A stretch of DNA of 64,000 bases from Escherichia phage MIZ4. The notes under the pieces are model-generated. The model was not told the origin of the DNA. It was given only the letters and a program-made list of their open reading frames with translations, and did not search any database. The stretch lies in sequence record OR167180. One strand, given 5' to 3'. Position 1 is the first letter of the stretch. Each line of letters opens with the position of its first letter. A program made the position numbers and the translations under genes. Of the stretch, positions 4,111-36,009 are shown piece after piece.

Positions 4111-4587
4111 TTATTTTTCTTGATGCTCGCGCTCATACTTTTCGAAATAAAATTCTACTGGCTGATCGTGGATTGAAAGCAAGCCAAAGCGTTTAGCCGC
4201 TCGCAATCCCATATTGCGCTGAATGTACTTCTGGAAGTTCTCTCGTATACACTTACGCCAGTATTCTAAGCCCATACAGCTTTTATAAAGATTGCATTGT
4301 ACACACGCCGGATTCATGTTATCAAGTATATCATGTTCCGGTTTATGCATTCCTACAACCTTATACTTCCACGATCCATCATCATTACGGGCAATTCGTC
4401 CATTTTCATCATAGACTACCTTTGAGCGTCGCAATACTGGTTTGATGTGGTCTGCGTGCCAGCGATCCCCTAGTTCCTCGCCACAATAGGCACAACGTCC
4501 ACCGTATTTCATTTTCAGGATCTGGCGTTGCTCTTTCTTTGACAATTTTTTAGGTTTAGGGGCTTTCGCCCCTTCATTATCACACAT
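4111..4587 (-). CDS. HNH endonuclease (free-standing, homing-endonuclease-like)
   Basis: ORF track; CAYCGEEL..HADHIKPV ... N..CVQCN..K His-Me finger pattern. Confidence 0.7.
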   Translation of the reverse strand: MCDNEGAKAPKPKKLSKKEQRQILKMKYGGRCAYCGEELGDRWHADHIKPVLRRSKVVYDENGRIARNDDGSWKYKVVGMHKPEHDILDNMNPACVQCNLYKSCMGLEYWRKCIRENFQKYIQRNMGLRAAKRFGLLSIHDQPVEFYFEKYEREHQEK

Positions 4588-25405: not shown

Positions 25406-25413
25406 TATAAATA
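25406..25413 (+). promoter_or_regulatory. T4-type late promoter TATAAATA upstream of gene 34
   Basis: exact TATAAATA 29 nt upstream of the gene 34 ATG; AAGGAG RBS follows. Confidence 0.7.
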
Positions 25414-25441: not shown

Positions 25442-28400
25442 ATGGCAGATTTTTCTCAACATTTCAAGGCCACATTTGGCTTTGACGCTGGTAATGAAAA
25501 GGTCGTCAATGTAGCATACGCAGATAAAAACACATCAACGGATGCGGTCAACGTTGAATTTTTCAATTACCATAATGGTATTACTCAGTATGACACAACT
25601 CGCGGTTATGATCAATACGGCACTACAATCTATCAAAACCGTCCGTATTATGCAAAAGAAGATATCGCAAAACCAGCAGGTGACTTTGACCCGACTAAAT
25701 GGCAAGCACTGCGCACGGACCCACGTTGGGATTATGTTGCAGCAACTTCCGGCGATACTCCTTTAAAGTCCGGTGATTATATCGCAGCGGACTGTCAGTT
25801 TGCAAACTTGACATTCTCAATGCCTACTAATCCTGTAGAGGGCGACACTATAACAGTAAAAGATATCGGTGGCAAGTGCGGTGTTAATGAGTTATCGTTC
25901 CTTTCGGTTGGTCATGAGTTCTATCATAATGGTGTGGTAAACAACCGCAAATGGTACTGTACTACCCCTTATGCAATGAACTACTTCATTTTTGTTCGCA
26001 ATCGCTGGCACGTTTACCAGACGGGAACGGAGCCACGCGGGGTATATGCACAACCATCTATCGACCCGATCCAGATGCAAAACGGTGATCAGGTATTCCG
26101 CCGTAGTTCTTTGGGTAACATTGTTTTGATGCTTCCTAAGTTTGCTAATAACGGTGATATGATCCAGACTACCGATCTTGACGGATTGACTGCAACCAAC
26201 CATGTTACGGTAAAAGTGCATGAAGGTGCGCAAGAACAATCGATCGGTACTTTCGGGGTAAAAGAAATTGTTGGTAAGCGTAGCGGTCATGGTGTATTCA
26301 TATTTGACAAACCGGAAAACTTATGGCGTTTGTGGGATGGTGATCAGTCTGTTCGCTTGAATCCTATCATTAGTGATACTCAATTATCCCCTAATAGCTA
26401 TGTTGCAGTATTTGGTGATCGTGATGTTACCTTGACTTTACCGACCAATGTCGAGCCGGGTGATCGCATTCAAGTTTCTATGCAGTATATGCACGGAAAC
26501 CAGACTTGCCGAATCATTACCTCAGAAGAGGATACAAAAATCCTTATGCAGAAAAACATGGTTCAGTTTCCTAAGCGTAGCGAGTACCCATTCAATGGGA
26601 CCGATACATGGATGGGAGTGTCTGAATTGTCTTTCAACGCTGCAAATGATTATGTACCTTATCTGGAGTTCTCTTATTCAGAAGGTGATGATGGTAAGAA
26701 ATACTGGTTGGTGGCACATGCTTACCCGATTGTAGAACGAGTAGATCCGACTCGTAAAGATCGTGTTGGTGTAATTGCACTGGCTACCCAGGATGAAACA
26801 AACAAAAACCATGAAGATAATCCTAGCGACGAAGTTGCGGTGACTCCAAAGGTTCTGGCTAATAAAACAGCCAACGAAACTCGACGCGGTATTGCTCGCA
26901 TTGCAACTCAAGCGGAAACGCATCAAGATACTGGTTCCAACTTCCTGGATGATGTTATCGTTACGCCTAAAAAGTTAAATGACTGTGTTGCTACCGAAGC
27001 CCGTCGTGGTGTGATGGAAATTGCAACCCAGCGCGAAACCAATGAAGGTTTAGACGATACCCGCGCTATTACTCCTAAGAAATTAGAAGAACGTCGCGCT
27101 TCCGAAGACCTCGCTGGTATTGCTGAAATTGTTCAGGTCGGCGGTAGTGCTGCCGCTCGACGTGGCGAAGCTGGTACAGGGATCTATAACATCAATGACC
27201 ATGCTAAAATTGTTACGCCAAAAAACATCAACGAAGTCAAGGCGACCGAAACTTCCCGTGGTGTTGGCTATCTGGCAACTGACGCGGAAGTGCAAGGGGC
27301 TACAGAATCAACCCCGCAAGATGCTTTACTAATCACGACTCGCACGCTAACGAAACGTACTGCTACCGAATCGCGCACTGGTATCGCTGAAATTGCAACT
27401 CAGGAAGAAACAAACTTAGGTCAAAGTGATAACCATATCATCACGCCCAAAAAGCTGCATACTCGCCGCGCAACGGAAACTTTACACGGTTTAGCAGAAA
27501 TTGCAACTCAGCCGGAATTTGACTCAGGTCTTGACGATGCTCGCATTTCTACCCCATTGAAGATTAAAACCTTCTTTGAGAATGCACAGCGTTTGAAAGT
27601 AGATCCGACTCAGGGGCTTAACCTTACTGGTGATTTGTGGCAAGGTATCATGATCCGCGGTCTGGACGCAACCGAAGACACAAAAGGTGTCGCTAAAGTT
27701 GCTACTACTCAGCTTACTGACGCTGGTCAAGATGATACTACAATCATCACGCCTAAAAAGCTGCAAGGCAAAAAGGCAACCGAAGGTAAAGAAGGTATTA
27801 TCCGAGTTGGTACTCAAGCCGAAACCGTGGCTGGTGCACTGGCTAATGTAGCAATTTCTCCGAAGAACTTCAAATATGTTGTTCAGACAGAGGATACATG
27901 GAAAGCAACCGAAGCGCGTCGTGGATTCTTGAAAGTTGCTACTCAGGAAAACTGTTTTGTTGGTGATAATCTGCAAGGTTCTACTCAAGAACTAGGAAAC
28001 TACCAGCATGACGGAATTGCTGTTACCCCGAAAGGATTAAACTATGCACTTGCTAATTTCTTACCTAAGATGGCAACCGCTCAGAATAGTTTGAAATTGG
28101 GTAACGTAGAGGCCGCTAAATGGGCGCGTAGAGACATTGACCAGACCATAGAGAGCAATTACACGTTTAATAAAAACGTTAACGTGAAGGGCGATTTGGG
28201 GTGCTTAAAATCTGGTTCCTTTGAAACTCTGTTTGTGACTAAGAACTCTACTGATGTTCCGAGTAATGGTCATTTGGTGTTGGGTGAGCGTGGAGTTGAC
28301 GGTCACACCGGAATTACTCTACATGGCACAACCGCATCGGAAGGCATGAAAAACTCGTGGTCTATTATCGTTGGTGGTACTGGAACAGCGCAAGTTGTTG

Positions 28401-29182
28401 ATAGTGATGCTATCGCTTTCGGTCAAATCAATGATGGTGGAGTCGTCGAGCATTACGCCTTTGCTATGGAACACAATGGCGACGCGACAGCATATAGAGA
28501 CTTTATTGCAGGTCGTAACCTGTATGCGAAACAAGGCGGTTTATACATTGTTGACCAGTCTAATCCGGCAATGACTCGTTCCCCAGATGGTATGCTGAAT
28601 ATCGGTCACGGTGGAAGTGTTAACATCAAGGCAGGTAATCAAACGTTAACTACAGAGATCGCCGGACAGAAATATCAGATCGTACACGCAGGAAACGCTG
28701 ACGAAGTTCTTAACCGTCAGTTTGTTAAGAATGCTGGCGATACAATGGTCGGTAAGCTGACTATGGATAATGCGCCTATTGTTTCTGTTAAGCATGAAGC
28801 TAGCGCGGCAACCGCTCCGGCAATCGGTAACATCGGTTTCTGGAATATGCGAGTTACTACCCAGAACATCAAAGAAACTTATCCAGAGAAGAAAAACGGT
28901 ACTCTGATGCAATGGGGTACTGACGCGGACGGGCTTACCCAGCTTTGGTCCCCTGATGGTACTCATAAACATTATATCCGTTCCGGTACTGGTGGTCAAT
29001 GGACCGCATGGGGTGAAATTTACACCAAACAGAATAAGCCTACCGCTCAGGAAATCGGGGCAGTAGTTGCAGAAGGTGGTTTAATGAACTCTATGACGGT
29101 TCGTGATTGGATCAAAGTTGGTAATGTTAAAATCATCGCCAATAATCTGACTCGTACCGTAGACTTTATCTGGGAAGACTAA
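25442..29182 (+). CDS. 34: long tail fibre proximal subunit
   Basis: ORF track; 1246 aa, internal TPKKL...ATE..RG(I/V)AEIATQ repeats; position after rnh. Confidence 0.88.
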   Translation: MADFSQHFKATFGFDAGNEKVVNVAYADKNTSTDAVNVEFFNYHNGITQYDTTRGYDQYGTTIYQNRPYYAKEDIAKPAGDFDPTKWQALRTDPRWDYVAATSGDTPLKSGDYIAADCQFANLTFSMPTNPVEGDTITVKDIGGKCGVNELSFLSVGHEFYHNGVVNNRKWYCTTPYAMNYFIFVRNRWHVYQTGTEPRGVYAQPSIDPIQMQNGDQVFRRSSLGNIVLMLPKFANNGDMIQTTDLDGLTATNHVTVKVHEGAQEQSIGTFGVKEIVGKRSGHGVFIFDKPENLWRLWDGDQSVRLNPIISDTQLSPNSYVAVFGDRDVTLTLPTNVEPGDRIQVSMQYMHGNQTCRIITSEEDTKILMQKNMVQFPKRSEYPFNGTDTWMGVSELSFNAANDYVPYLEFSYSEGDDGKKYWLVAHAYPIVERVDPTRKDRVGVIALATQDETNKNHEDNPSDEVAVTPKVLANKTANETRRGIARIATQAETHQDTGSNFLDDVIVTPKKLNDCVATEARRGVMEIATQRETNEGLDDTRAITPKKLEERRASEDLAGIAEIVQVGGSAAARRGEAGTGIYNINDHAKIVTPKNINEVKATETSRGVGYLATDAEVQGATESTPQDALLITTRTLTKRTATESRTGIAEIATQEETNLGQSDNHIITPKKLHTRRATETLHGLAEIATQPEFDSGLDDARISTPLKIKTFFENAQRLKVDPTQGLNLTGDLWQGIMIRGLDATEDTKGVAKVATTQLTDAGQDDTTIITPKKLQGKKATEGKEGIIRVGTQAETVAGALANVAISPKNFKYVVQTEDTWKATEARRGFLKVATQENCFVGDNLQGSTQELGNYQHDGIAVTPKGLNYALANFLPKMATAQNSLKLGNVEAAKWARRDIDQTIESNYTFNKNVNVKGDLGCLKSGSFETLFVTKNSTDVPSNGHLVLGERGVDGHTGITLHGTTASEGMKNSWSIIVGGTGTAQVVDSDAIAFGQINDGGVVEHYAFAMEHNGDATAYRDFIAGRNLYAKQGGLYIVDQSNPAMTRSPDGMLNIGHGGSVNIKAGNQTLTTEIAGQKYQIVHAGNADEVLNRQFVKNAGDTMVGKLTMDNAPIVSVKHEASAATAPAIGNIGFWNMRVTTQNIKETYPEKKNGTLMQWGTDADGLTQLWSPDGTHKHYIRSGTGGQWTAWGEIYTKQNKPTAQEIGAVVAEGGLMNSMTVRDWIKVGNVKIIANNLTRTVDFIWED
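26830..28050 (+). repeat. tandem degenerate ~40-aa repeats inside gene 34
   Basis: about 10 iterations of (I/V)TPKKL-x-ATE-x-RG-x-(A/V)-(E/K)-(I/V)-AT-Q-(E/A)-ET read from the translation. Confidence 0.6.
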
Positions 29183-30558: not shown

Positions 30559-32049
30559 ATGGCAGATTTGAAACATGGATCTACTGTAGGCGGATCTCCC
30601 ATTTGGACGCAAGGAAACTTGACGATCCAGCCAGCGGGTGATCAGCTTTTCTACAAAGGTCATAAAATCTATACCGCTTTTGATAAACCTTCGGCTGCCG
30701 ATTTTGATGCTGTTAGTGCATCCGAAGGCGGGACATTTCAGAAACTGGTCCATTTTGAAGAAGGTTTAAGCGTAGGTAGCGCATCCGGTGGAGAAACCAA
30801 AAAGAACGGGATCTTTAAAGGAAATAGTGATGCGGCTAACTTTGATGGTGTAAGTTGGGGTTTGCATTCGTGGAAATCTATTGGTTTTGTTAATGCTCGT
30901 GATGATGTTATCATGGCTTATATTGACACTACCACAGGTGATTTTAAAACTAAAGGGACCATCGAAGGGACAACCATTAAAGACACTGGTCAACGCGTCT
31001 ATAGCCCTGTTAATAAGCCGACAAACAATGATTTGGATTTGGTTTCCAGACAAGGCGATACAATCACCGGAACTTATAATTTAAACACGGTTAATTTTAA
31101 ATTGTCGGTTGATTCTAAGCTGGTTGCGAGGGATCGGGATTTTATTACTTTCGATGCTGAAAACATTTATTATGGAAACGTTCTTGATACTTTAGTATTT
31201 CGTAGCAAGAACGAGCCTAAAATTTTTGTTAACGGTAGTGAAGGTAATTTTTATCATACCAACAACAAGCCTACTAAAGCCGACGTAGGATTGGGTAATG
31301 TCACCAATGACGCGCAAGTTAAGCGTGCTGGTGACATTATGGAAGGTAATTTGCAAGCGCCCAAAATGCTTGTGACAACCGATCCATCTGGACCTAATGA
31401 TCTGGTTAGATTGAGCTACTTTGAGAAAAAAGCAATGGTAGCTAGTCCAACTATCATTGGAAATGTTGATTGGAATACCCTTATTAATCGCGGTATGTTC
31501 AGTGTGGAGAATGCCGAAGCCGGACAAAATAAACCATCTGATAGCTATTATAACGGTGTTTTGATGGTATATCGACCGGAAGATGCGGTTGGTACTGTTC
31601 GAGTTGTTCAGGTCTATTACCCTGAATCAATTAATCATCCTGTTTGCTGGCGTTCTTGTTCCGGTAACTCGTGGACCGCATGGAACTATGTAGATCACCG
31701 TAAATTGGCTGATGCTCGCTATGTTAATGTGACTGGCGATACCATGACTGGGGCGTTGACGGTTCCTGCTGCGAACGGCGTTCATACCACAGAAGCTAAC
31801 TATAATGGTGATAATTGCTACGCTGGACTTAATAGCTTAAATGGTACAGCAATGATTCATCGTGTTAGTGATATTAAAGCGCACGAGAAACTAGGAATCA
31901 CACATGATTCTAAAATTATTTTCGTTAAATCCCGTGACAATACTCAAGATACAGACACTTTCGAAATATACCACGAAGGACATAAACCAACTCCTGATGA
32001 GGTTGGCGCGGTTCCGCTCAATGCGGTAATTGATTTTGGTACTTTCTAA
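30559..32049 (+). CDS. 36: long tail fibre protein (gp36 position; 496 aa)
   Basis: ORF track; position between 35 and 37. Confidence 0.55.
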   Translation: MADLKHGSTVGGSPIWTQGNLTIQPAGDQLFYKGHKIYTAFDKPSAADFDAVSASEGGTFQKLVHFEEGLSVGSASGGETKKNGIFKGNSDAANFDGVSWGLHSWKSIGFVNARDDVIMAYIDTTTGDFKTKGTIEGTTIKDTGQRVYSPVNKPTNNDLDLVSRQGDTITGTYNLNTVNFKLSVDSKLVARDRDFITFDAENIYYGNVLDTLVFRSKNEPKIFVNGSEGNFYHTNNKPTKADVGLGNVTNDAQVKRAGDIMEGNLQAPKMLVTTDPSGPNDLVRLSYFEKKAMVASPTIIGNVDWNTLINRGMFSVENAEAGQNKPSDSYYNGVLMVYRPEDAVGTVRVVQVYYPESINHPVCWRSCSGNSWTAWNYVDHRKLADARYVNVTGDTMTGALTVPAANGVHTTEANYNGDNCYAGLNSLNGTAMIHRVSDIKAHEKLGITHDSKIIFVKSRDNTQDTDTFEIYHEGHKPTPDEVGAVPLNAVIDFGTF

Positions 32050-32117: not shown

Positions 32118-34886
32118 ATGGCAGATTTAAACAGAATCCAGTTTAAACGCACTAGCGCAGCCGGACGTAAACCGGATGCTGGTACGATGAATCCGGGAGA
32201 GTTGGCAATTAACTTAGCAGACCAATATCTGCTTACAAAAAATGATGGTGGGCAAATTGTTAATTTAAGTTGCCCACCAGTTTATGACAAGAGCGTTAAT
32301 GTAAAAGGTCGTGTGGTTGCAGATGACCTTATGTGGAGTAATACCGCAAACTATTTCGATGACCCAACCGCACGAAATCTTGATAAATTTGGGGCATTTC
32401 GTACTAATGATATGGATGGTCATCTAGCACTTGCTTTGCATATTCCCCATCCTAGCGGTATAAATCATGCTCGTGGGTTTGATTTTACTTATGGTTCTAA
32501 CGTTGTTCCTACTGTAAAAACCTATGGTTATAACGCTGATGGTGTATTGGCATATTCATATCGCATGTATCACGAAGGTGATAAGCCTAGTCCGTCAGAA
32601 TTAAATGTGTACAGCAAACAAGAAGTAGATCGGATGTTCCAGAAGACACTTGATTTTGGAATTGAGTCCGGTTGGTTTAAAATCGCTACAGTATATCTAC
32701 CACAACAATATGGGCGTAGTGCTAAAATTAGATTGGTTGGTGGTAATGGTTATAATGTAGGACAGACCGGGCAAGCTAATATTATTGAATTGGTTCTGCG
32801 TAGCGGGAATGGAAATCCGGTTGGTGTTGTGTTTAACGCTTATATGACCATCTGGTATATAGACCAGAAGTTTTGTGCTATTCCTACTGGTGGTGACTCT
32901 TATGATATATACGGTAGCTATTCCGGTCATAGTGGATTTGTGTTGGCTGAATACCAGACTAGCCCTGATGTTAACCTGACTTTATATGATAAACCACAAT
33001 TTATAGGAAGTCAATTACCGGAAGCTGAAACAAAGTTCGATGCTTATACAATCACTTCATTTAGTAATTATCGCAACCGCGGGACATTAAATTTTGGTGC
33101 TAATTCTCAAGGCCAATATGACATTGAGCATTTGAACGAACAACCGACAAATGCTAAAAAGATGTTGCGTCGCTTCCGTAGTTGTGCTCCTGCCACTATC
33201 TGGCATGAGACAGTTGATGATAACTCATATCGTCTTGCTACTGGATACGAAGATACAAATCAGGAATTATTGCTTTCGGCTGTAACCGGGTTACATGTCA
33301 AGAGATTAACATTGGATGGCGGTGTTGGTAATGCCGGTATTGACATTCGTCGAGGACCAAACGAAGCAAGCCATTTTAATTTCATGGACTATCGCACTGG
33401 ACAAGATGTTCGTAATGGCTGGTTTGGCTTCGGTGATGGTCAGACCAAAGATTTTATTTGGTGGAACGATAACGGTCAAAACTCGATAAACCTGATTGAA
33501 GATGGTGAATTGCATATTACTGGAGGTAAAGGGCAGAAAATTGTAATGAATAGCGAAGTTGCATTATCCGAAAATGCTCGTTTGGCTGTCAAAGGCGGTA
33601 ACTATGGTTTGATTTTACGCAATGATGGTTCTGGTTTCCATATTCTTACTACCAACTTAAAAGATTCTTTTGGTAGTTGGAATAATCGCAGACCATTCAG
33701 TTATGATTTTGCGGACGGTGGATTATATTTAGGTGGTACTGAAACCGCTCGTTGTTTGCATCTTGGAATTGATGGTAGCACTCGTCTTGAAGACAACCTG
33801 TTCTTTAAAGCTGGTTCTCGTCAATCTATGGACTATATGGAACTCGTCCATTGGGGGGCAAGCAATACAGGTCGAAATAACGTTTTAAGTCTTCGTGACT
33901 CAAAAGGATTTTTAGCAGAATTTGAACGATTGGGTGATAATACCATTAAAAACACCTTCTTCGGGAAACTGAAAGTTAATCGTGGTTCTGACGCTATTAC
34001 CATTAATGCCGAAACGGGAGATTCGTCGGTATATTTGTTGGGTACGTGTGCCGATAATAACAACTGGTATATCGGTAAAGGTGGTGCGGATAATGGATTA
34101 GCGTTCTATAGTTATGCTACTAATGCTGCTGTAAACATTACAAACGGAGGGGATATCGCACTAAGTCCAAAAGGCATCGAAATGACTCATGTCAATAACG
34201 TTCGATTCTATGTTCATGGTGAACGTTGGACTGCTAGCCAATCTGGAGGTTGGAACGACCAATGGGGATTAGAAGCGCCGATATTTGTTGACCACGGCTA
34301 TGTTGGACCAGACAGTTATTATCCGATTATCAAAGGAAGAAGTTTAATCACCAATCAAGGATATACAACTGCCGTTGATCTTGGTATTCGTCGTGTCCCT
34401 AACAATTGGGGGCAAGCAATTATTCGTGTTGGATCTGCGGAGGCATCGCCAGCGGCTGGTCACCCTCAAGCTGTATTCGAGTTCCATCATGATGGTACTT
34501 TCTATTCTCCTGGTAATGGTAACTTTAACGATGTTTATATTCGTTCTGATGATCGTCTTAAGATTAATAAAGAAGAGTTAGAATATGGAGCACTTGAAAA
34601 AGTATGCCGTCTGAAAGTTTATACTTACGATAAAGTTAAGTCTATTAAAGACCGTAGTGTTATTAAACGTGAAGCTGGTATTATTGCTCAGGATCTTGAA
34701 AAAGAACTACCGGAAGCTGTATCTAAAGTTGAAGTTGATGGATCTGATGTTCTGACAATTTCTAACTCGGCAGTGAATGCTCTTTTAATTAAGGCTATTC
34801 AGGAAATGAGTGAAGAAATTAAAGAATTGAAAACTCCTTTCTTTACTAAAATTGCTCGCAAAATTAGTAAATATTTTAAATTCTAA
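32118..34886 (+). CDS. 37: long tail fibre distal subunit with C-terminal intramolecular-chaperone-like domain
   Basis: ORF track; C-terminal RSDDRLK ... GIIAQDLEKELPEAV resembles self-cleaving chaperone domains of fibre/spike proteins. Confidence 0.75.
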   Translation: MADLNRIQFKRTSAAGRKPDAGTMNPGELAINLADQYLLTKNDGGQIVNLSCPPVYDKSVNVKGRVVADDLMWSNTANYFDDPTARNLDKFGAFRTNDMDGHLALALHIPHPSGINHARGFDFTYGSNVVPTVKTYGYNADGVLAYSYRMYHEGDKPSPSELNVYSKQEVDRMFQKTLDFGIESGWFKIATVYLPQQYGRSAKIRLVGGNGYNVGQTGQANIIELVLRSGNGNPVGVVFNAYMTIWYIDQKFCAIPTGGDSYDIYGSYSGHSGFVLAEYQTSPDVNLTLYDKPQFIGSQLPEAETKFDAYTITSFSNYRNRGTLNFGANSQGQYDIEHLNEQPTNAKKMLRRFRSCAPATIWHETVDDNSYRLATGYEDTNQELLLSAVTGLHVKRLTLDGGVGNAGIDIRRGPNEASHFNFMDYRTGQDVRNGWFGFGDGQTKDFIWWNDNGQNSINLIEDGELHITGGKGQKIVMNSEVALSENARLAVKGGNYGLILRNDGSGFHILTTNLKDSFGSWNNRRPFSYDFADGGLYLGGTETARCLHLGIDGSTRLEDNLFFKAGSRQSMDYMELVHWGASNTGRNNVLSLRDSKGFLAEFERLGDNTIKNTFFGKLKVNRGSDAITINAETGDSSVYLLGTCADNNNWYIGKGGADNGLAFYSYATNAAVNITNGGDIALSPKGIEMTHVNNVRFYVHGERWTASQSGGWNDQWGLEAPIFVDHGYVGPDSYYPIIKGRSLITNQGYTTAVDLGIRRVPNNWGQAIIRVGSAEASPAAGHPQAVFEFHHDGTFYSPGNGNFNDVYIRSDDRLKINKEELEYGALEKVCRLKVYTYDKVKSIKDRSVIKREAGIIAQDLEKELPEAVSKVEVDGSDVLTISNSAVNALLIKAIQEMSEEIKELKTPFFTKIARKISKYFKF

Positions 34887-34894
34887 CAACAAGG

Positions 34895-34912
34895 GGGCAA
34901 CGCCCCCTTTGG
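34895..34912 (+). promoter_or_regulatory. hairpin GGGGGC-AACG-CCCCC between 37 and 38
   Basis: read directly. Confidence 0.35.
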
Positions 34913-34922
34913 AGTATAAATT

Positions 34923-35705
34923 ATGGCAGTAGTTGGTGTTCCTGGTTGGATTGGAAGTTCAGCCGCAAATGAAACAGGGCAACGATGGATGAGTCAAGCG
35001 GCTGGTCAACTAAGATTGGGTGTTCCTTGCTGGATGAGTCAATTTTCAGGTCGCTCGCGAGAAATTATTCATACACTTGGTGCAGACCATAACTTCAATG
35101 GTCAGTGGTTCCGTGATAGATGCTTTGAGGCAGGTAGTACACCTATAGTGTTTAATATTACAGGTGATTTAGTATCATATTCTAAAGATGTTCCTTTATT
35201 CTTCATGTACGGGGATACACCAAATGAATATGTTCAGTTGAATATACATGGCGTAACGATGTATGGTCGTGGCGGGAATGGCGGTAGCAATGGTCCTGGA
35301 TCAGCCGGGGGGCATTGTATTCAAAATGATATTGGTGGGAGGCTAAGAATTAATAATGGCGGTGCTATCGCTGGCGGCGGTGGCGGTGGCGGTGGCGGGT
35401 ATTATTCTCCTTTTTCACAAATGAGATTAACCTTTGGCGGTGGCGGTGGGCGTCCGTTTGGTGCGCCCGGCGGATCTATTGATATGCAATCAGGCGCAAC
35501 TGCTGGTACTCTTTATGCGCCCGGATCGGGGTCCGTGAACGGTATCTATAATGGCGGAAGCGGTGGTGAGGTAGGCGCCGCAGGAGGTAGATGTAATATT
35601 CGTGGTCAAGGATCTGAATATAATGGCGGCGATTCTGGATATGCTGTTATAGGGTCTTCTCCAACGTGGCAAAATCGCGGAGCTATTTACGGACCGGCTG
35701 TTTAG
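34923..35705 (+). CDS. 38: tail fibre adhesin, T2-type gp38 with glycine-rich motifs
   Basis: ORF track; several poly-Gly motifs ([26 protein letters not shown]) separated by variable segments. Confidence 0.8.
35374..35459 (+). repeat. GGC/GGT trinucleotide tracts encoding poly-Gly in gene 38
   Basis: ggcggcggtggcggtggcggtggcggg and ggcggtggcggtggg read directly. Confidence 0.7.
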
Positions 35706-35769
35706 ATGTAATTATAAAAAGAATTAAGGAAAACTCCCACGGAAGGGGAACTACTAAGGAGAAACGGCT

Positions 35770-36009
35770 ATGGTCTATAATATCGTCATTGGTGCTTTGT
35801 CTAATTTCGGAATGAAACTATTGTCAAAGTTAATTAGTGAAAAGATGCTCACTAAAATTTTCTTCTATTGCGCTCGTCGTCTTGCGGCTTATACCAATAC
35901 GCCAATTGATGATCGTTTTGTGGAAGAACTTTATAAGGAGTTTAATAAAGATCAGTCAGAAGATAGTAACGAGCAAGATAAACCTAGTGATAGTCAAGTA
36001 CCTAAATAA
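35770..36009 (+). CDS. hypothetical small protein between adhesin and holin
   Basis: ORF track; strong AAGGAG RBS; hydrophobic N-terminal half, acidic C-terminus. Confidence 0.5.
   Translation: MVYNIVIGALSNFGMKLLSKLISEKMLTKIFFYCARRLAAYTNTPIDDRFVEELYKEFNKDQSEDSNEQDKPSDSQVPK

Follow-up and report, generated by a model that had tools for sequence, protein, structure and literature searches.

Peptidase_S74-chaperoned gp37 and a probable tip adhesin gp38 in a Krischvirus long-tail-fiber locus, with Tsx as the predicted receptor and length-fixed glycine tracts as likely exchange patches

How does a phage build the receptor-binding end of its long tail fiber, and by what kind of sequence change could that end acquire a new host? 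The question is raised by positions 32118 to 35705 of a 64,000-nucleotide stretch of Escherichia phage MIZ4 (record OR167180; the whole stretch is called the window below), where the gene for a distal fiber subunit, gp37, is followed by the gene for a glycine-rich protein, gp38. An earlier reading of the letters of this DNA (the original prediction) had proposed that gp37 removes its own C-terminal chaperone, that gp38 is an adhesin, and that the glycine codon tracts of gp38 are prone to slippage. We favor, with a probability of about 0.9, a reading in which gp37 is chaperoned by a Peptidase_S74 domain, gp38 occupies the tip of the fiber, the predicted receptor is the nucleoside channel Tsx, and the glycine tracts are fixed in length and serve as patches for sequence exchange.

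The interval consists of two open reading frames (ORFs) on the + strand, with coordinates and lengths as originally called:

32118..34886, + strand: gene 37, distal long-tail-fiber subunit, a 922-residue precursor (phrog_1699, E 6e-149; 100% identical to MIZ5 WNA15156.1)
34923..35705, + strand: gene 38, monomeric receptor-recognizing adhesin of the T2/T6 type, 260 residues and 26.4 kDa (Pfam, PDB, and AlphaFold2 [AF2])

ORF calls and Pfam matches place them in the canonical T-even gene order of gp34 (25442..29182), gp35, gp36, gp37, gp38, a 79-residue ORF, and a T-type holin. A megablast search matched the entire interval, at 100% identity, to the Krischvirus Escherichia phage MIZ5 (OR167181.1), whose isolation host was E. 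coli B, and the locus is discussed under the name MIZ5 in the following. The MIZ5 record labels the two genes "long tail fiber protein distal subunit" and "tail fiber protein; host specificity." The same sequence is already annotated in MIZ5, so both genes are known ones from a genome already on deposit. The locus encodes the receptor-binding tip of a long tail fiber of the T2/T6/S16 type, which is already known structurally and genetically, and its sequence stands in GenBank with a matching annotation.

The chaperone assignment rests on the extreme C-terminus of gp37, a protein that otherwise matches families of the distal long-tail-fiber subunit. Two adjoining segments are relevant here:

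34062..34544, + strand: distal tip module of gp37, aa 649 to 809, ending in DVYIR809; also present in the T6-like phages of the genus Tequatrovirus and in Krischvirus FL15
34545..34883, + strand: C-terminal intramolecular chaperone (Peptidase_S74), aa 810 to 922, 113 residues and 12.9 kDa (Pfam, alignment, and AF2)

The Peptidase_S74 profile (PF13884, "chaperone of endosialidase") matches aa 810 to 868 at 43.8 bits against a cutoff of 22 (E 3e-11). The domain opens with the motif S810-D-D-R-L-K815, in which Ser810 (34545-34547) is the candidate nucleophile and Lys815 lies at 34560-34562. A search with the 133-residue C-terminal fragment returned 23 proteins, mostly fragments, which is sufficient for reading the motif and makes a thin alignment for AF2. 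Lys815 is invariant in an alignment of 16 homologues that includes sequences only 37% identical, and Ser810 is at least 90% conserved in the same set, the only exception being an N-terminally truncated sequence. Modeled with AF2, the last 133 residues reached a predicted local distance difference test (pLDDT) score of 78.5, and the top Foldseek matches of this model are all intramolecular chaperone domains, led by the MyRF ICA (7DC3; template modeling [TM] score 0.64 to 0.68, E 5e-5) and followed by weak matches (E 0.05 to 0.6) to 3GUD, 3GW6, and 4UW8. These endosialidase-type chaperones and the MyRF ICA share with gp37 the Peptidase_S74 family, the fold of the model, and a Ser at the N-terminus that is followed by a Lys five positions later; they differ in being only 8 to 22% identical and in that the surface released here would be a docking site for gp38 rather than a functional fiber end.

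The closest comparison is the gp37-gp38 tip of phage S16 (PDB 6F45; Dunne et al. 2018, cited through PMC6851490 and PMC7917993), and the gp37 domain aligns to the S16 chaperone in chain 6F45_A. According to PMC7917993, the last 113 residues of S16 gp37 are likewise an intramolecular chaperone, which cleaves itself off at DLNVS^SDRRIKK, in front of an SDxRxK motif, after trimerization. The residues before the cut differ (DLNVS in S16, DVYIR here), and the fPS phages provide a still closer junction, DVYIR^SDGRLKI (PMC7917993), beside DVYIR^SDDRLKI in the window. By analogy with S16 and fPS, gp37 self-cleavage is predicted between R809 and S810; the 102.2-kDa precursor would then yield a mature protein of aa 1 to 809 with a computed mass of 89.2 kDa and a 12.9-kDa fragment. 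The original prediction of a chaperone of the self-cleaving kind, about 115 residues long, which had singled out RSDDRLK (aa 809 to 815) and GIIAQDLEKELPEAV (aa 854 to 868), is supported by the Pfam match, the Ser/Lys motif, the S16 alignment, and the AF2 model, with the length corrected to 113 residues.

A degenerate chaperone that stays uncleaved in the mature fiber, with gp38 bound elsewhere, would be the alternative, and our literature search found no cleavage data for MIZ5 or any Krischvirus. We regard this alternative as very improbable because nothing in the Ser/Lys dyad or the rest of the SDxRLK motif has been lost, because both are conserved, and because the junction closely resembles those of S16 and fPS. 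Further, the domain is 90 to 100% identical among the gp37 proteins of Krischvirus and Tequatrovirus, whose shafts differ, and conservation at this level across genera indicates strong selection.

The product of the next gene is recognized as an adhesin by every profile and structure comparison made. Two Pfam domains, GP38 (PF05268; 239.6 bits, E 4e-71) and Gp38_N (PF21721; 70.6 bits, E 1e-19), exceed cutoffs of 25 each and, like Peptidase_S74 in gp37, lie well outside the range of chance; the PHROG match is phrog_2056, "tail fiber protein; host specificity" (E 3e-110). Sequence matches in the PDB are 9V85, the receptor-binding domain of PP01 gp38 (E 3e-77), and 6F45_D, S16 gp38 (E 4e-47); the AF2 model (pLDDT 87) retrieves only these two structures in Foldseek, at TM 0.72 to 0.84. 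PP01 gp38 (PMC12892980) is the best structural match, with 64% identity and the same beta-helix, polyglycine-II (PGII) sandwich, and loops A to E. It differs from the adhesin here in binding OmpC of E. coli O157, in the sequences of its hypervariable loops, and in a central glycine run of 8 rather than 9 residues, placed in the same register. S16 gp38 is more distant, at about 44% identity, and binds Salmonella OmpC; there, one gp38 is attached to the trimeric gp37 by three Trp residues and combines a beta-helix with a PGII sandwich that includes a long central glycine run at residues 151 to 158/159. These concordant matches confirm that the gene encodes a T2/T6-type gp38, as had been suspected.

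The N-terminal part of gp38 offers a means of attachment to gp37:

34923..35045, + strand: N-terminal attachment domain of gp38, aa 1 to 41, with Trp9, Trp22, and Trp37 (Gp38_N)

Trp9 and Trp22 are invariant and Trp37 is at least 90% conserved among 44 homologues. In S16, three Trp residues of gp38 insert into pockets of gp37, according to PMC6851490. The remainder of the protein, which is 24% glycine overall, alternates between glycine-rich motifs (GRMs) and segments that vary among homologues (hypervariable segments [HVS]); this conservation pattern agrees with the earlier description of glycine-rich motifs separated by variable segments. The GC content is 0.47 to 0.52 across the 3' half of gene 38 (35000 to 35750 of the window) and about 0.40 in the flanks, driven by the glycine-rich motifs, and GGC accounts for 27% of glycine codons in gp38 versus 7% in gp37.

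Taking the steps of assembly from S16 and related systems, we propose that gp37 would be made as its 922-residue precursor, whose Peptidase_S74 domain would help the trimeric, beta-helical tip to fold. Ser810, activated by Lys815, would then attack the R809-S810 peptide bond, so that the chaperone removes itself and leaves a new C-terminus (...DVYIR809) that exposes a three-fold symmetric face. The end of the tip module is accordingly the predicted docking face, by analogy with S16 and fPS, and a single gp38 would cap it through an N-terminal three-helix domain bearing the three Trp residues. The rest of gp38 would form a beta-helix carrying the PGII sandwich built from the glycine-rich motifs, and the hypervariable loops between these motifs would bind an outer membrane protein. 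The glycine tracts would be structural and fixed in length as protein while, as DNA, offering short patches of homology for the swapping, duplication, and deletion of cassettes.

The tracts themselves are arranged as follows:

35373-35399, + strand: long glycine tract G151-G159, nine codons (GGC GGC GGT GGC GGT GGC GGT GGC GGG)
35400..35435, + strand: HVS2, Y160-F171, 36 nucleotides, corresponding to receptor loop B in the PP01 numbering
35436-35450, + strand: second glycine tract G172-G176, five codons

The glycine codon tracts announced for 35374-35459 are therefore real, although they are not one continuous tract but two, with 36 nucleotides between them. Tandem Repeats Finder reports GGCGGT in 3.8 copies at 35376-35398 (23 nucleotides, score 46) and 2.5 copies at 35435-35449 (score 30). 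Such a perfect repeat is what would be expected if the tracts were contingency repeats, in which replication slippage changes the number of glycines and hence the host range, and the record of phage kvi annotates a repeat_region at the same place. The repeat is shorter than four units, and in a simulation of nine glycine codons drawn from GGC and GGT, about 5% of the draws contained a perfect period-6 stretch of 23 nucleotides or more; the regularity of GGCGGT is close to what chance would produce (P about 0.05).

The comparison with relatives bears most directly on slippage. We compared 117 cluster representatives of gp38 homologues from a collection of 5.8 billion proteins, together with related DNA from 13 IMG/VR loci and five annotated phage records. 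The five-glycine run G172-G176 is intact in 116 of the 117 homologues. The long run ranges from 5 to 9 glycines, yet 112 of the 117 sequences keep it in the same register of the alignment, and the differences between adhesin types are explained by substitutions at the edges, e.g., IASGGGGGGAVS. Each of the nine readable genes of the T6/RB49 type has nine glycine codons, although no two of these genes spell the run alike at third positions; synonymous drift with a constant run length leaves the slippage reading unsupported. The equivalent run of S16 (151-GGGGGGGG-158) is described in PMC6851490 as the central PGII helix, with a saturated hydrogen-bond network, and in T6, deletions of single glycine-rich motifs or HVS were not recovered as viable phage. 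Codon usage points in the same direction: GGY accounts for 91% of codons within glycine runs versus 70% elsewhere (the loci are related, so the significance is overstated), and homopolymers of G never exceed 6 nucleotides in 20 genes, which means that codon choice in the runs avoids long G homopolymers.

Two homologues do carry in-run deletions, P0057 with 6 and P0115 with 4 glycines instead of 9, amounting to losses of 3 and 5 codons. Both are single-member clusters that trace to single contigs assembled from read archives and containing JSE/RB49-like genes (L020 and L021), and we did not accept them as viable slippage variants for this reason. In both contigs, a 73-residue ORF (positions 42-263 of each; MATVKIIKSSAGFGF...) precedes gp38 in place of gp37; this context agrees with the published remark that gene 38 is displaced in RB49, and no homologue of the ORF was found in the window. 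Taken together, the constant run length across relatives, the central PGII helix, the failure to recover T6 deletions, and the lack of long G homopolymers contradict the proposal of slippage-prone glycine repeats, which we consider highly unlikely as a source of host-range change. The length changes that were found are duplications and deletions of whole cassettes between the tracts rather than changes in the number of glycines.

A comparison with kvi (species RB49) reveals a mosaic. Sliding identity between the window and kvi is 91 to 100% over about 34425-35399, falls to 48 to 69% over 35400-35624, and returns to 93 to 100% thereafter (to 36050), so that the divergence starts exactly at 35400, at the end of the nine-glycine tract. 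The divergent stretch is:

35400..35624, + strand: specificity cassette HVS2-HVS4, with 96 to 100% identity to FL04 and FL15, which depend on Tsx, and 48 to 69% identity to kvi

A second exchanged block, in the gp37 tip at 34125-34424, is 93 to 100% identical to FL15 and 51 to 73% identical to kvi. At the sequence level, MIZ5 is thus a mosaic relative to kvi, with a gp38 cassette and a gp37 tip like those of FL04, FL15, and T6 set between kvi-like flanks. This pattern fits the published view of glycine-rich motifs as hot spots at which recombination shuffles modules. Judged from the alignments, the glycine tracts look more like recombination junctions, with the long tract as the 5' junction of the cassette, and the locus illustrates modular shuffling cleanly in a natural genome, one junction falling precisely on a glycine-rich motif.

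The two tracts might also recombine with each other within the gene. The gp38 of Yersinia phage vB_YepM_ZN18 (MN716856.1), isolated on Y. pseudotuberculosis, has 277 residues and contains an exact 51-nucleotide tandem duplication (2.3 copies, 100% match) of GGGGG plus the 12-residue HVS2 cassette (positions 4462-4578 of locus L002, corresponding to about 35385-35450 of the window). Among 404 matching phage records, this duplication is present in ZN18 only. Two of the three homologues with deletions from tract to tract (P0018, P0020, and P0111) look like reciprocal deletions of the ZN18 duplication, namely, P0018 and P0020. HVS2 is one of two segments that let T6 x PST recombinants plate better on Yersinia pseudotuberculosis (PMC3157838). 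A precedent for the tandem duplication of a small adhesin segment with conserved motifs on either side comes from T4, in which tandem duplications in gp37 were a route to a wider host range (Tetart et al. 1996, as cited in PMC9603124); unlike the ZN18 duplication, these lie in gp37 and not in a gp38 adhesin, and none of the kind is present in the window. It is conceivable, though we think it unlikely, that the two tracts act as direct repeats within the gene that yield consequential duplications and deletions of the HVS2 cassette, and that the ZN18 duplication is a host-range adaptation. If so, the earlier expectation of length changes at the GGY tracts would be right in spirit but would apply to whole loops instead of glycine number. 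The new host in the T4 duplication study was reportedly Yersinia.

The receptor can be predicted from the near identity of gp38 to adhesins that have been examined genetically. Compared with FL04 gp38, there is one difference, S42A, which lies outside the receptor-binding domain and leaves that domain identical; FL15 gp38 differs at four residues. FL04 and FL15, both Krischviruses, fail to infect a host from which tsx has been deleted (Lutz et al. 2025, PMC12032242); their gp37 shafts are far from that of MIZ5, with 4 to 44% identity over aa 51 to 650 of the alignment. T6, a Tsx-binding Tequatrovirus, has the same layout of GRMs and HVS in gp38 and nearly the same HVS set, with 29 differences over 260 aligned positions (89% identity). 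According to Trojet et al., nearly all adhesins that recognize Tsx have one common HVS set (PMC3157838). The near identity to the FL04 and FL15 adhesins, combined with the T6-type HVS set, leads us to predict Tsx as the receptor of MIZ5. The identification of gp37 and gp38 as the likely host-range determinants is likewise supported, given that MIZ5 and FL04 have one and the same gp38 receptor-binding domain and that infection by FL04 requires Tsx.

HVS swaps in T6-type gp38 alter host range (PMC3157838), a result that also bears on the possibility that gp38 is a T4-type assembly chaperone absent from virions, with gp37 itself binding the receptor. Although homologues in T6 and JSE carry the legacy label "distal long tail fiber assembly catalyst," this possibility is scarcely credible in view of those swaps, the membership of gp38 in the adhesin families PF05268 and PF21721, its matches to the solved fiber-tip adhesins of PP01 and S16, and the intramolecular chaperone that gp37 possesses of its own. 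The T4-type candidate was rejected, as every profile and structure that gp38 matches belongs to the adhesin type, which the published description sets apart from T4 gp38; the two kinds of gp38 are unrelated in sequence (PMC6851490).

Several observations weigh against the combination of a self-cleaving gp37, a tip-bound gp38, Tsx recognition, and length-fixed tracts. For MIZ5, the predictions that gp37 is cleaved, that virions contain gp38, and that infection depends on Tsx are all carried over from homologues. In addition, 5 of the 117 homologue clusters have in-run or tract-to-tract deletions, all five being single-member clusters, which indicates that misalignment at the glycine tracts happens or is produced by assembly. 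AF2 confidence is also low for the residues before Ser810 and for residues 1 to 40 of gp38, as is expected for segments that fold only in the complex.

The practical value of the locus is that it predicts the use of Tsx by MIZ5 and that host range could be reprogrammed by swapping either the 35400-35624 cassette or the module of gp37 tip and gp38. Its conceptual value is low, since the understanding of such fibers is unchanged.

The tip module appears to be shared across genera on otherwise different shafts. Tequatrovirus megablast matches to gp37 begin at query position 1945, equivalent to 34062 of the window, and the tip and chaperone of T6 gp37 are 76 to 98% identical to those of MIZ5 from aa 651. 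By contrast, the T6 shaft (aa 1 to 650) is unrelated or very divergent, and the backbone here is that of a Krischvirus. One domain of the MIZ5 shaft was recognized:

33399..33704, + strand: Gp34_trimer-like domain of the gp37 shaft, aa 428 to 529 (Pfam PF21446, E 5e-13), with weak PDB matches to T4 gp34 and the Mu tail fiber S

Gene 38 starts 36 nucleotides past the gp37 stop codon, an arrangement common to FL04, FL15, KarlGJung, T6, and kvi. No second copy of gp38 or of the chaperone was found within the window, and the MIZ5 record has a single place for gp38; in RB49 and JSE, gene 38 is said to be displaced to another genome position. Outside the window, a 303-residue E. coli protein (P0033, "tail fiber domain-containing protein") combines Peptidase_S74, Gp38_N, and GP38 and is an apparent fusion of the gp37 chaperone domain with gp38, possibly arising from a frameshift, read-through, or an assembly artifact.

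Three elements are relevant to the expression of these genes:

25406-25413, + strand: TATAAATA, 36 nucleotides upstream of the gp34 start codon
30518..30525, + strand: TATAAATA, T4-type late-promoter consensus, 41 nucleotides upstream of the gp36 ATG
34891..34909, + strand: intergenic hairpin AAGGGGGC-AAC-GCCCCCTT, located past the gp37 stop codon and ahead of the gp38 Shine-Dalgarno sequence

The only + strand matches to TATAAATA in the 64-kb window are those before gp34 and gp36, with none before gp37 or gp38; in total, the window contains no more matches than chance would give. The position of the 30518 site suggests a late gp36-gp37-gp38 transcript starting there, a suggestion for which position is the sole basis. 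Scans for sigma-70 promoters and terminators between gp37 and gp38 remained at chance level. The hairpin, which precedes the gp38 Shine-Dalgarno GGAG (34911-34914), has an 8-bp GC-rich stem and a 3-nucleotide loop, with a minimum free energy of -15.5 kcal/mol (z, -3.2). No T run comes after it, and the terminator scan did not pick it up. Across FL04, FL15, KarlGJung, T6, and kvi, the stem is conserved and the loop variable, and the hairpin may stabilize the RNA or couple translation.

Two neighboring genes also distinguish the locus from its Tequatrovirus counterparts. The 79-residue ORF at 35770-36009, between gp38 and holin gene t, matches phrog_402 (unknown function) and is named "Dc5 [RB49]" in kvi; the Krischviruses MIZ5, FL04, FL15, and kvi have this ORF, whereas T6 and KarlGJung lack it at that position. 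The distal hinge connector gp36 (30559-32049) has 496 residues and matches phrog_16472 over its full length, which makes the Krischvirus protein more than twice as long as the approximately 216 residues recorded for T6 and KarlGJung.

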